Origin: Eledone cirrhosa | Taxonomy: Eukaryota | DNA length: 64,000 bases | Direction: 5' to 3' | Assembly: GCA_964016885.1 (NCBI GenBank) | Contig: OZ024741.1 | Location: forward strand, 134,230,001 to 134,294,000 | Part shown: piece after piece, positions 13,236-48,460 of the stretch | Layout: each line of letters starts with the position of its first letter | Position numbering within the stretch: the first letter of the stretch is position 1 | Translations under genes and position numbers: made by a program | Notes under the pieces: generated by a model | The model's database searches: none | Seen by the model: only the letters and a program-made list of their open reading frames with translations | What the model was told of the DNA's origin: nothing

Positions 13236-13274
13236 TTCGGACATGTTTCAGTCTTATTTGAAATCATCAACGAA
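13236..13274 (-). ncRNA. Decayed hammerhead
   Basis: TTCG-TTGATGA-(weak stem II)-GAAAC-AT-GTC^CGAA. Confidence 0.45.
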
Positions 13275-13888
13275 CTCGTATACGTTTCTTGTCCATGTAT
13301 ATAGTGATCCTCTATCTCTAGGTGAAGCAAGCACTGAGGAGTTTAAGTAAAATCAAAACCTGTCCAGAGTGGCTACCAAGCTTACTTAGAATGTCTGAGT
13401 CTTAAACTTTTGTTATTGAAACTATGTTTTCTCCCTCTCCTCACTGCAAAAGCAATTTTAATTGATTGACATTATATTGTCCCCTACACATCTGGGTGCA
13501 CGAATTTGCATTACCCTTTGGGTGGCTGTGTGTGGCACAATTGCATACGGAAAAAAACGAAACACATAGGATGAACAAAAGCGTCCCTCCTCCTTATCAA
13601 CCACCCAAAGGGTAATGCAAATTCATGCACCCAGATGTGTAGGGGACAATATAATGTCAACCAATTAAACTTGCTTTTGCAGTGAGGAGAGGGAGAAAAC
13701 ATAGTTTCAATAACTAAAGTTTAATATATCTGTTTTTAGCAAGAAAGGCAACGACTCAGACATTCTAAGTAAGCTTGGTAGCCACTCTGGACAGGTTTCG
13801 ATTTTACTTAAACTCCTCAGTGCTTGCTTCACCTAGAGATAGAGGATCACTATATACATGGACAATAAACGTATACGAGTTCGTTGAT
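13267..13888. repeat. Fold-back element with arms of about 260 bp
   Basis: 13267-13524 is the reverse complement of 13601-13888, with an insertion of about 30 bp in the right arm. Confidence 0.95.
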
Positions 13889-13997
13889 TATATATATATA
13901 TATATAGTAAAAAATTGAACGGGAACAAAACAGAGAGGCAGTACGAACAAAGGTTTATTAGTTTCACGCTCTTGAGAGTGGGGTGGTGGTGGGGAAC

Positions 13998-19380: not shown

Positions 19381-19447
<67 letters not shown>

Positions 19448-19822
19448 AACAAGTAAGACCCCGACGGCTGAGCTCAAGCCGTTTCGACGGCTAATTCTGA
19501 ACTCATATATATATATATATATAATTCACAAGAAAATGGGAAAAGACGACGTATGGAAGCTGTTAAAACAGCAAAATACCGTCAAAACTGCGTTGGGTAA
19601 AATGTTACCTCGAAGGACAGAGATCAGCAACTCGGTGTGAGTTGACTCGAAGGAAAGAAGAGATGATATCTAAGAAGATAGGAAGGAAGAAATTGTAATA
19701 TTTTATCCAACGTCGCTTCGACAGTATTTTGCTGTTTTAACAACTTCCATACGCCGAGTTTTTCCATTTTCCTGAGAATTCTAATACACTCGCATCTCAA
19801 CACTCGATTTTCGAGTTGATTT

Positions 19823-21198: not shown

Positions 21199-21213
21199 AT
21201 ATATATATATATA

Positions 21214-21689
21214 TTTGGTGTGGGATGCTTAAAGCGTCCGTATGCGGTAGGCCGTTTGAACACTCGATGCTCTTACAGAGCAGAGTATAATATCACATAA
21301 GAAACGGAGAATCAGTGGTGCGACGAATTAAAATTCATTAGACATATTACAATCGTTTCTCTGCTGACCAGCTCGAACGATGCGATGATCGAACCTGACT
21401 CTGAAATCGCAAGATCCTCAGATGCGTCTCAATCTTTCGAAGCAGAGTTTCGAAATTCTGCTTCGAAAGATTGAGACGCATCTGAGGATCTTGCGATTTC
21501 AGAGTCAGGTTCGATCATCGCATCGATCGAGCTGGTCAGCAGAGAAACGATTGTAATATGTCTAATGAATTTTAATTCGTCGCACCACTGATTCTCCGTT
21601 TTTTATGTGATATTATACTCTGCTCTGTAAGAGCATCGAGTGTTCAAACGGCCTACCGCATACGGACGCTTTAAGCATCCCACACCAAA
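21214..21689. repeat. 476-bp spacerless palindrome in (TA)n
   Basis: Axis at 21451/21452 (tttc|gaaa), about 3 mismatches. Confidence 0.97.
21474..21563 (+). ncRNA. Type I hammerhead, long stem II (mirror copy 21340-21429 on -)
   Basis: AGACGCAT-CTGAGGA-TCTTGC...CAGGTTCGATC/GATCGAGCTG...GCAGA-GAAAC-GATT-GTA^ATATGTCT. Confidence 0.7.
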
Positions 21690-21785
21690 TTTATATATAT
21701 ATGTATATATATAGTGGTAAAAAAAAAACGGGAGGTTATATTCGAAACTGGTAGAGCACTCAGTCCAAAGAACAAGTTCGGTATA

Positions 21786-21899: not shown

Positions 21900-22250
21900 A
21901 AAAAAAGATGAAATCGAAAATGCAACTGCAGTCTTATTTTTTTTTAAATATATATATTTATTTGGTTCCTTTACCGGTTTCGCAGTTCTTCTGCTTTTCA
22001 AAAGTAGAGTTGATATAGAGGGTCTGTGGTTTTTCTTACATGTGAGAAAAACCACAGACCCTCCGTCTCAACTCTACTTTTGAAAAGCAGAACAACTGCG
22101 AAACCGGTAAAGGAACCAAATAAATATATATATATTTTTTTAAATAAGACTCCACTTGCATTTTCGATTTCATCTTTTTTTTCTTTATACTTTCACTCGT
22201 GTAGGACACCTCGGTTATTTTTCATTTTGTAAAACAAACCTGACTTTCTA
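21896..22250. mobile_element. Fold-back HHR element, axis 22040/22041
   Basis: Arms of about 145 bp plus a unique tail, in (TA)n. Second copy at 48857-49230. Confidence 0.9.
22077..22112 (+). ncRNA. Minimal hammerhead, U3-A8 variant (mirror 21969-22004 on -; family copy 48983-49018 on -)
   Basis: CTT-TTGAAAA-GCAG-aacaa-CTGC-GAAA-CCGG-TA^AAG. Confidence 0.75.
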
Positions 22251-36776: not shown

Positions 36777-39688
36777 ATACCATATTATCCGCTACACATC
36801 TTTAAATTTGAATTCTGGCTCTTCAATTAGGTATAAGCAGGTACCACAGTTTATTCTTCCGCATTTTGTAACAGTTAGGCTGGAGATTTTTTATGGGGTT
36901 TTCTTCCAGTAATTATATGTTTTAGTGTTTTGGTCTGTCTTTTACTTTTAATAATTTGTTGTGTTCCAAGAATTTTGTTCATTTTTTCATCTTCGTATAG
37001 AATTTGGAGGTTTTTGCTGAGATGGTCAAACATTTCGACATTTCTGAGGTTGACAGTTGACACATATGGTCAGGCATTGTTCCTGGTTTTGTTTTGTTTT
37101 TTGTTTTTTTTCCTTAGCTATGTCTTCCCCCTTATATTCCATTTGTGATTAGACCAAATGGAAAGTGTATTTTTCAGTTCAGCCAGTCTTTGGTCACGTT
37201 TAATCGGGTCCGATATTATTGTGCAAATTATTTTAGTTAGGTTAAAAGAAATGTTCAGTTTAGGATGTTTTGGATGGCTCAATATAAATAGGTGTTGTTT
37301 GGAGTACGTAAGTTTATAGAAAATGTCCGTTTCTGTTCGTCTGTCAATTTTTATGATTGATATATCCAAAAGGATTAGTTCATTGGGGTTAAACTCCATT
37401 GTGAATTGAATGTTGCTGTTTAGATTATTCTTGGATTTTGCGATGTATCAAGGTTTTCCCGCCGTAAGATAAAGCATTCATCCAGATATATTTTCCAGTT
37501 GTTTTCTTTTTATCTTATTTAAATTTTTCTTTTTTTTTGTGCTTGTGTCTCCAAATAGTAGTAGTGGTTGATTGTAAATCTTTTTCTCAGGAAATCCCAT
37601 GACTAAATTGACTTATGTGTGTGGGGGGGGGGGGGCGGGAGCTACCTTTGTGTCTATTGCAATTCCTGATATAAGTCGGTTCGCAGGTCTATAGAACATA
37701 AAATAGTTGTTTTGTAATATGAATCTGAGTCTATCAATGATGAAGAATTTTCAGTGTGTATCAGTAATTCGGATTGATATGTGTCTAGCCAATATTCAAT
37801 TGCAGTTATTCCAGTCATGGGAGTTGTTTGTGTATAAGTAGACAATGACGAAGGAAACAAAAAGTGAATTCATTTTCTGTTTGTTTGTTGTTGTTGTTTT
37901 TTTGCAGATGATTCAGCTTGTCTAGATCATCTCATATGTAACACTGCACATGTTTTAAGTAGGGCTTTAGAGGGATGTCCTGAATTTACTTAGTCTGTGT
38001 GTTTCACATTCAGAGTCTGCTATAATTGGTCTAATCTTTAAATCGTCTGGAGGTAGTAACTAGATGTATTTGAGTTTTGATTAAAATAAATTATTTCGTC
38101 CCCAGGAGATAAAAACATAATAGAGAAAATACGTGGGTCTGAAAAATCATCTGATTCAGTTTTTTGTTTATATAAAAAATCAATGCTCATTCCGTCTACA
38201 CCATATTTAAACTGGATGTTTAGGGTTTCACAATTTTTGGAGTCAAAATTTTATTTGATCAATCGGATCAATAGGTACAGATAATTCACTGATAGTTAAA
38301 GAGGAAGAGTAACATTTTATTTCTAAAACATTAGTTTTATAACGAAAATATTTTTCCTATTGTTATAAAGAGTCTTGTATTTAAAGACAGTTAAATTAGC
38401 TCTTAAGATTGATCTGAAGGCTTCTACATTAGAATATTTCAAATGAAGGTTTTCAGATAAAGAAGAATTAAAAAGTTTAGACTTACTACGAAGTGTCAAG
38501 CAAGTATTTGTTTATTTGTTGGTTTGTTTTTGAGGAATTCTCAAAAGTTCACTCCTACCTCTTTTATTATGTGGCAAGCTCTCAGAATTACCCGTGTTGA
38601 CACAAAGAATTTCAAGATTTTTTTCCAACCAATTATCTTCATTTTTATATAAACTTTGCCTGTGTTATCTTACTTTGTTGCAATTTTGTTTCCAGAGTAC
38701 TTAAAGATTTTTTAATCTCTGTCTATTTTTTGTCAAATTATATCAATTAAGAACCCTGCTGAATCATCATTGCGAGCTATTTTGGTTTTTCTCAAGAAGT
38801 TAAATAAATCAATATATTTCATTTCTTAAAAATGTTTATTTAATACAAAACCAACAGAACAGAAGAAATGTTATAACATTATATAAGTACTGAATATTGT
38901 GTAAATTTTATTGTCGATACTGGCATATCGCGTTATATGTTATTATTGAAACAATCATGAAACTATTATTTTGAATTTTTTAATGAGATGACATTGTATT
39001 TAGACACTATGCTTGAGTAATTTGTTAATTTTTGAACTTGTGAAAGATTTATAGGATCTGAATAAAATTACACCAATTTTAACTGGTACATACCAGTTAA
39101 ACTTGAATCTACAAAATTTTAGGGCCATTGAAAAGGTGACAAAAAGTGGCAAAAACTATGTTACTATAGATCTTTATCTATCATATTTGTTCAAAATTAT
39201 ATTTTGCTCATTTGGAACTACTCGAAATAGCAACATTTTATGTAGCGATTAACATAAAGATCGGTAATTTTCATTAAGCCAAACACATTTTTCAACTCCA
39301 AAGTAGTTAAAGTTATTTTATTTTACAGCATAACAACAATATATATATATATATAAGTGGAAGCTTAGTAAAATCGAAGCTTTGACTGTGGGAAAGCAAA
39401 GTCGACCTACAATAGCAATGAGTTAGCAAAGCACTCAATAAGTCTTAGAGTAATAACATACGTTTAAATAGCTACTATATATATATATATATAGGAAAGT
39501 GTTTAACCCCGACAGCAGAGCGCAAGCCGTTTCGACGGCTATTTCTGAACTCAGTCCAGAAATAGCCATCGAAACCGCTTGAGCTCTGCCGTCGGGGTTA
39601 AACATTTTCCTATTACCCACTCTACTACCCTAAGTATTGAGTACTCTGGTCCATCTGGTTCCTTACCACACCTCCTTCGTTATATACA

Positions 39689-39724
<36 letters not shown>

Positions 39725-40013
39725 CAATAAAGTATGTCCATAGAATCATTTGATAAAATATATACACCATCTCCTCTCCCAACCAGCATAATCAACCACA
39801 CACAAAACCAATTAAACCAGGCTATAAGATTAAAAGGCACCTATGAAGAAATAATAGATAAATAAACGACAGCCATCTATTCGCGATCAACAGCTATATT
39901 TACCCACCATTTCAATAGCACGTGGAAATCGATTAAATATATCGTCAACCATACACAATTAGGTATAAAATCAAAGTTAGAAGAAAAAATGTATATAAAC
40001 ATACCAAGATTAC

Positions 40014-42321: not shown

Positions 42322-42659
42322 AGTATGTTTTGAAAAAAAAATATATATATATATATATAGTAAGTATGTTTTGAAAATATATATATATATATATATATTT
42401 CCAGGGAGTGTAATGTGATATTACTGTAGGTTCACCCAGGTGAGCACTCGATGTTTAGGTTCACGTCAGTGGCGAGGTGTAGAGCTAGACAGAGTGTAAT
42501 ATAATAATATAACAAGGATGATTTGTTAAGCCTTCATTACGTTTATTGATTGGTGACGCGCGTTTCGCTATTGATCAGCTCAAGGTTCGGTCTGTATCGA
42601 TATGGCCTAACTCTGGAATCAAAAGCTCGTCGGACCTCTGCTGTTGTAATGACACCAGA

Positions 42660-42744
42660 GGTCCGACGAGCTTTTGATTCCAGAATTGAGCCAGATCGAT
42701 ACAGATCGAACTTTTAGCTGATCAATAGCGAAACGCGCGTCACC
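42660..42744 (+). ncRNA. Type I hammerhead, CCGACGA core, long stem II (mirror copy 42552-42636 on -)
   Basis: GGT-CCGACGA-GCTTTTGAT...ATCAATAGC-GAAAC-GCGC-GTC^ACC. Confidence 0.75.
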
Positions 42745-42879
42745 AATCAATAAACGCAATGAAGGCTTAACAAATCGTCCTTGTTATATTATACATATAT
42801 ATATATATCATCATCATCATCATCACCGTTTAACATCCATTTTACCATATATATATGTGTGTGCGTAAATACATATTTA

Positions 42880-44807: not shown

Positions 44808-44862
44808 TATTTTGTCTGATGAGGACGTACTGTTGTACATCCGAAATATGTATAATAAAATG
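44808..44862 (+). ncRNA. Type I hammerhead ribozyme (canonical core)
   Basis: Stem I TATTTTGT/ATAAAATG, CTGATGA, stem II GGACGTAC-tgtt-GTACATCC, GAAA, self-complementary TATGTA, AUA cleavage after 44854. Confidence 0.85.
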
Positions 44863-48416: not shown

Positions 48417-48460
48417 CTGCAGACACTAATGTTTCTGGGTATCACCCTTCATCAGTACAG
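48417..48460 (-). ncRNA. Type I hammerhead ribozyme
   Basis: CTGTA-CTGATGA-aGGGT-gat-ACCCa-GAAAC-ATTAGT-GTC^TGCAG. The first stem II pair is an A.A mismatch. Confidence 0.7.

Follow-up and report, generated by a model that had tools for sequence, protein, structure and literature searches.

Head-to-head stubs of a Penelope-like element in Eledone cirrhosa, most arms of which end within the same few bases of a predicted hammerhead

The window analyzed here, a 64,000-nucleotide stretch of Eledone cirrhosa contig OZ024741.1 (assembly GCA_964016885.1, forward-strand positions 134,230,001 to 134,294,000), holds at 39494–39680 a short head-to-head stub of a Hydra-clade Penelope-like element (PLE), one of thousands of such stubs. 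Taken as a single locus, it is an ordinary dead copy of a known arrangement. The mirror centre of its palindromic part (39494–39610) is base 39552, around which 55 of 61 mirrored positions pair, and the fold centred there has a z of −15.4, with none of 200 shuffles equalling the real sequence. The parts are as follows, with arm positions (−40, −34 and so on) numbered from C17 of the hammerhead:

39476–39493, no strand: (TA)n target microsatellite, left-flank sequence; most copies have the same flank.
39494–39551, minus strand: tail-less arm, a pLTR segment that starts at −40 (the initiator-like A, 39551), takes in GAAA, stem III and the cut site, and finishes at the base of stem I, which is 3' end site 1.
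39552, no strand: lone base separating two arms, each of which ends at −40; in this subfamily it is non-parental, parent L081 having T.
39553–39610, plus strand: tail-bearing arm, aligned to parent L081, with the 3' strand of stem II (39553–39570), GAAA (39571–39574), stem III with its palindromic loop (39574–39592), C17 (39593) and the 3' strand of stem I.
39611–39680, plus strand: one-sided tail (70 nt, unique) ending at 3' end site 2.
39681–39725, no strand: (TA)/(TACA)n right-flank sequence.

A preliminary description of this DNA had given the letters of the hairpin centre correctly, and likewise the GAAA, stem III and GUC^GGGG of the right arm; stem III comprises 5 bp with a palindromic loop and carries a single G>C change, CGGC indeed being the family consensus. 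Alignment to L081 bears out its further observation that an inverted copy of the downstream arm occupies the place of the core. Lacking both the core and the 5' strand of stem II, the 39553–39610 arm is not a complete ribozyme; it is the 3' half of a real hammerhead, and parents with the complete fold exist. Two readings have to be replaced: GACGGCTATTTCTG, previously assigned to the 5' strand of stem II, is rather the reverse complement of the right arm, from which the parental 5' strand and loop differ, and the hairpin at the palindrome centre, previously equated with the parental stem II, was rather produced by the join. The tail is 10 nt below the family-majority length, and in the full-length parent its sequence continues toward the ORF. 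No target site duplication could be read at 39494–39680, both flanks being (TA)n, and an Rfam scan of the window gave no hammerhead among the matches listed (150 of 156). Non-LTR retrozymes consist of head-to-tail tandem units, each with a complete hammerhead (bioRxiv 10.64898/2026.07.22.740005), whereas the stub is head-to-head and coreless.

A DNA search of the genome gave 3,089 candidates, and exact patterns count at least 52,348 arms and, for one subtype, 9,526 tails. The 30 best copies share their outer ends and differ in their centres, and a tail of about 80 nt sits on exactly one arm in 77 of 78 palindromes, so placed that copies end at either of two fixed 3' sites. Arms reaching −44 number 7,747, and most of the first 100 listed run on into a common upstream sequence, these being non-inverted copies. 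Locus L121 is a textbook Penelope-like insertion with a full-length parent: an inverted 5'-truncated copy with a tail is followed by pLTR-ORF-pLTR, a 3,118-nt unit, and an end without a tail. Its 786-codon open frame carries RT (YRDD) and C-terminal GIY-YIG (VIYQC..KAYIG) motifs, and Atlas matches of the parent ORF score 0.96–0.99 to HTH_animal/GIY-YIG/RVT_1 clusters; Pfam returned no family for it and only a weak GIY-YIG match for a relative (E 0.069), and a PDB phmmer search had no matches. Hydra marks in the parent ORF are DKT, a CxCX5C linker, CxxC/CxH and the lack of CCHH, the target being (TA)n, while RWR stands where the Hydra clade has RWK. Since these motifs match the marks defined by Craig et al. 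2021 (PMC8557442), we assign the parent, by its ORF motifs, to the Hydra-clade EN+ PLEs. As in the elements described there, a single ORF joins RT to a C-terminal GIY-YIG with DKT, CxCX5C and CxxC/CxH and without CCHH, targets are (TA)n, the pLTR has a hammerhead, and an inverted 5'-truncated copy accompanies a tail on one end only; the present element differs in RWR for RWK, in a tail of about 80 rather than 30–40 nt, and in its 3.1-kb unit. In the available text of PMC8557442 neither a sharp 5' stop inside the ribozyme nor tens of thousands of 200-nt stubs are described for Hydra PLEs; the stub family may already figure in its supplementary file S2, a list of Hydra hammerheads.

The parent pLTR contains what is, from structural modeling, a predicted self-cleaving type I hammerhead, with stems I–III arranged around a core, a GAAA and an NUH, for which an Rfam scan of this pLTR gave no hammerhead match. 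The minimum free energy (MFE) fold of L081, parent of the subfamily of the 39552 stub, is the three-stem junction (z −2.3; 2 of 200 shuffles as good); stem II in the parent spans about −77 to −23, and its apical loop falls between about −45 and −52. In the pairing test 92.5% of cells are paired, and in a diverged subfamily three stem II pairs are altered on both sides, these three compensatory pairs being one lineage event and their count being reached in 177 of 500 shuffles. The preliminary description had expected non-inverted copies with CUGANGA 5' of the stem. Fifty-two copies were picked by the 5' strand of stem II, blind to the core, of which 9 false or degenerate ones were dropped; the 43 read-through copies kept have UUGANAA in 36 cases (with all four bases at N7), CUGAGAA in 5, single variants in 2 and CUGANGA in none. 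Non-inverted core-bearing parents thus do exist, and their core is UUGANAA. Genome-wide, exact YUGANAA(G) core matches number 6,987 versus 47 for the CUGANGA pattern, and the CUGANGA-anchored search returned with these 47 no parent family, only palindrome centres, one-off contexts or joins to other families.

Among the first 100 of the 6,987 cores listed, 76 have a Watson-Crick 3–8 pair (U3-A8) and 24 are CUGANAA, with a C3-A8 mismatch. The C3-A8 subfamily has spread with what is probably a weak core, and a mismatch in 24 of 100 suggests that cleavage may not be needed; the ribozyme of a lizard PLE is dispensable in vitro (PMC11167929). The U3-A8 core itself has been described in PLEs before (Cervera and de la Pena 2014, PMC4209133). 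The hammerheads described there are likewise of type I and located in the pLTR, with U3-A8 replacing C3-G8, a G10.1-C11.1 pair, a larger helix II and a palindromic loop 3, whereas here helix III has 5 bp (monomer-like), helix II, interrupted by an internal loop, is about 55 nt long, and C3-A8 occurs in one subfamily. In the aligned parents and the L081 fold, 3' end site 1 (TTCC) lies at the base of an extended stem I, pairing with a GGAA upstream of the core.

The 5' ends of the arms were compared in the exact-anchor arms of the first 14.1 Mb of C1 (95 of the first 100 listed, 94 recovered). The anchor demands an intact −30, and a single end call is accurate to within about 3 nt. Of these arms, three stop at −30 to −33, 65 at −34 to −43, nine at −44 to −59 (four of these nine being over-calls, with calls at −47 representing over-extension into the partner arm), two at −60 to −109, and 15 past −110. 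Loss per nucleotide is 0.06–0.12 in the stop zone versus 0.002–0.003 upstream of −60, that is, 20–50 times higher. Palindrome axes are thus non-random with regard to the ribozyme, as the preliminary description had held, with most arms ending within the same few bases inside it. The zone lies in the 3' strand of stem II, the palindrome axis falling 4–5 nt 3' of the apical loop rather than inside it; within the 10-nt scatter, end peaks at −39 and −34 coincide with two AG dinucleotides (−40/−39 and −34). At L216, L222 and C1:23089383 T runs directly precede the −40 base on its 5' side; they represent either A runs that were appended to the end of the cDNA or slippage on a parental T tract. In a tail-anchored sample, 22 of 92 tails have no called cut-site region on their own arm, in some cases by deletion and in some by mutation. 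The same strand-switch joints occur in public-run contigs of unspecified kind (L121, 4346–4353), so they are not an artefact of this assembly. Two relatives in the window bear on the breakpoint:

19446–19504, minus strand: solitary arm without a tail, from a sister subfamily; it stops at −40, carries one additional G (sense) and lies within (TA)n.
1255–1368, no strand: head-to-head copy with an asymmetric join, its tail-less arm (minus) running to −25 and its tail (plus) from +26, with a 2-nt overlap.

Both had been ascribed (as 19458–19505 and 1255–1370) to the breakpoint of the 39552 palindrome. The first is indeed a single arm and stops at the same base, −40; together with L260 it demonstrates that arms without an inverted partner also stop in the −34 to −43 zone. 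The second, which joins −25 to +26, has a different breakpoint and belongs to the deleted-arm kind.

We consider it probable that the stubs are two cDNAs of one RNA that ran off a fixed 5' end and were end-joined. In such a scheme both target strands would prime on one RNA, each side of a cut (TA)n target starting one of two reverse transcripts, and the 3' end sites being the two places of priming; both would run off one fixed 5' RNA end some 40 bases before the cut site, after which the two cDNAs would be end-joined, repair-type joining making the centre. Precedent comes from the Anolis Poseidon PLE (Frangieh et al. 2024, PMC11167929), in which two internal RT start sites define the tail and bracket it as two fixed 3' ends, both strands of an AT-rich target are extended, and a dimer is predicted; this element is of a different clade, and the available text does not address inverted-copy joining or the cDNA end. 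Arms of one palindrome nearly always belong to the same subfamily (mean 1.05 stem I segment differences within versus 3.0 between palindromes), and together with the one-sided tail this agrees with the copying of a single RNA from two start sites, the situation described in that study.

As to the stop itself, we lean, by a little, toward a capped transcription start of the pLTR promoter, predicted to lie inside stem II. The stop base is the A of YYAGTYC and matches YYANWYY, the initiator consensus; TYAG is present in 14 of 14 aligned parents, including a subfamily with differing flanks. That Penelope carries a promoter inside its pLTR (PMC2377424) also speaks for a start here. Two features speak against it: the Penelope downstream element RGACGTGY (D. 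virilis) found no match at +28, +28 to +33 reading TGAGCT, and one subfamily lacks the TATA-like stretch that others have some 30 nt upstream. Loci with both arms intact to −40 have a single base between them in 202 cases and 2–7 bases in 807. Among the first 100 of the 202, the lone base is C:G 90 times and T:A 10 times, the subfamily parent having mostly T. This non-parental C:G is what a copied cap would give, an untemplated G being the mark of capped L1/SVA RNA (PMC4859970), and the 39552 copy is of that type. Outside one-base centres, a cap-derived G preference was not found in extra-base counts or 2–7-nt spacers: the extra base outside simple junction classes is G in 13, C in 13 and A in 3 cases (p = 0.13 for G), and the first cDNA base at 100 arm ends with 2–7-nt spacers, counted by hand and often locally templated, is A (parental) in 58, C in 20, G in 16 and T in 6. 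Fifty-eight of 100 ends with such spacers reach −41 or beyond. If transcription does start inside stem II, the 5' pLTR of the transcript would be coreless and unable to cut, and the 3' pLTR would be able to.

The main rival to an RNA start, which we regard as unlikely, also has two joined cDNAs, but takes −40 for a roadblock in a longer RNA: a protein at the tip of stem II, a tertiary contact, or an end that is related to splicing and lies close to the two YAG sites. Longer templates do exist, about one arm in six reading through (the 15 of 94 past −110), and in keeping with a roadblock the stop lies just 3' of the apical loop, the ends peak at the two AG dinucleotides and the extra base is not G-specific. 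A structural stall, however, would be expected where RT enters the stem (at about −23) and not at its tip, the second AG is not conserved in one subfamily, and a base at the join that the parent does not have points to a genuine end of the template. Nor is a constant upstream exon joined at either AG, for which reason a spliced-RNA origin of the stop was rated low.

Two joined cDNAs would also account for the palindrome centres, which were analyzed in samples covering arm distances under 130–140 nt. The tail-less arm is longer than its partner in 31 of 81 palindromes and shorter in 30, the remaining 20 being ties, a few of the short calls being point mutations (for example L092 and L102); another sample split 21:21:8, and the commonest asymmetric join occurs genome-wide 330 times one way and 456 times the other. 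An apparent 3:1 excess of longer tail-bearing arms was discarded, as the leading H of the pattern drops rows with a fixed G upstream. The 81 centres comprise 27 overlaps, 11 blunt joins and 43 inserts, the latter often copied from neighbouring GAAAT/CAGA, a combination of overlaps, blunt joins and locally templated inserts that would be end-joining-like. A join of a −40 end to a −34 start recurs at 786 or more loci and in several subfamilies, although the parent offers no microhomology for it; speculatively, two identical GGAC ends that anneal via tandem G-A mismatches might yield this join both ways.

A self-priming origin of head-to-head Penelope palindromes has been proposed before (Arkhipova et al. 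2013, PMC3846280), and the arrangement reported there is similar to ours, with an inverted pLTR, a palindromic junction, a one-sided tail and an Inr-like sequence in the pLTR. Adapted to the present family, one cDNA from the tail end would reach the RNA end at −40, fold back via added bases rather than stem II, and copy itself, with later breaks at the centre scrambling the join. We hold this to be rather improbable, although fold-back on a single template predicts the same-subfamily arms and the tail on exactly one arm (77 of 78) equally well. The 31:30 symmetry would demand remodelling in most copies, and, whereas PMC3846280 favours self-priming on an antisense template, favours two sense-templated cDNAs here; it could also come from later breakage of palindrome centres. 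Moreover, one-base and blunt centres with both arms complete are common, one base between two −40 arms probably leaving too little room for a primer to fold back. The −40 stop is also seen in solitary arms without a tail (19446–19504 and L260), site 1 also ends long direct copies (L121), and the palindrome at L276 combines arms from two different recurrent subfamilies.

The preliminary description had attributed the palindrome to snap-back, the nascent cDNA passing the stem II loop and priming on stem II complementarity, with deletion of the core. That the axis zone falls within stem II is in line with this, and in L098 the loop is retained along with part of the 5' strand, the switch falling approximately in stem II register. 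L098 is, however, the only one of 81 palindromes to keep the loop: arms stop before it, and the left arm is without the parental 5' strand. Snap-back would moreover need the tail-less arm to be nested in the tail-bearing one, contrary to the 31 longer, 30 shorter and 20 tied cases, and a second family, seen at two loci (L042, L059), has a complete hammerhead whose distance from the axis, upstream of it, is about 85 nt. Loop loss largely refutes snap-back as the main route, for which we deem it very improbable, and it may be a minor one accounting for about 1%. Amplification as a unit of a palindrome made once, after the manner of a fold-back DNA element, is hardly credible: some centres do recur hundreds of times, but centres vary from copy to copy, and one and the same recurrent centre turns up in many stem I subfamilies, with the tail in either orientation.

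Arrangement, clade and core variant were all known before, and the new twist is the stop inside the ribozyme. A literature search for stops inside a ribozyme or for a strong-stop/terminal-repeat model found none, in a corpus covering subscription journals thinly and supplements not at all. For the question of how Penelope-like elements make tandem and inverted copies, tens of thousands of stubs with a common stop provide a natural record of where reverse transcription was aborted; this record speaks against a fold-back on the ribozyme and singles out one base as the candidate capped start. Carried further, two joined cDNAs of an RNA starting inside its own ribozyme lead to a model that we put forward as a possibility only, and with some doubt. 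With the hammerhead bisected by the RNA start, the 5' pLTR would be coreless and the ribozyme would act only at the RNA 3' end, in the cutting 3' pLTR, creating a 41-nt terminal repeat like the R region of an LTR; cDNA begun at the tail sites would run off the cap as a strong-stop product, and would then either transfer to the cut 3' end and copy the body, as in about one arm in six, or fail to do so and join its twin, giving stubs. If true, the 41-nt repeat could carry the strong-stop jump and thereby supply a mechanism for pLTR and partial-tandem regeneration, and the palindromes would be fossil strong-stop DNA.

Other families were met along the way. The second family, at about 1300–1560 in L042 and L059, has a complete CUGANGA hammerhead and a head-to-head palindrome of its own; its junction with a stub-family arm falls inside the stem II of this second family. 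A third repeat family is joined directly after CTGAGGA to stub-family arms at L031, L037, L051 and L057 (about 1300–1530), found by a search that selects for CTGAGGA-type motifs. The window itself contains more CUGANGA...GAAA motifs, at 44816–44855 (+), 48420–48455 (−), 14025 (−), 13820 (−), 21482 (+) and 21421 (−), some of which sit in the arms of other palindromes. Three of these six were folded, and none has a hammerhead as its MFE structure; that at 21482, 30 nt from the axis of a 500-bp palindrome, does not adopt a hammerhead fold (z 0.63) and was dropped as a control. Further near-perfect palindromes lie at 21201–21702, 21900–22181, 42504–42792 and 13263–13891; several of them adjoin (TA)n, and they are probably stubs of other PLE families.
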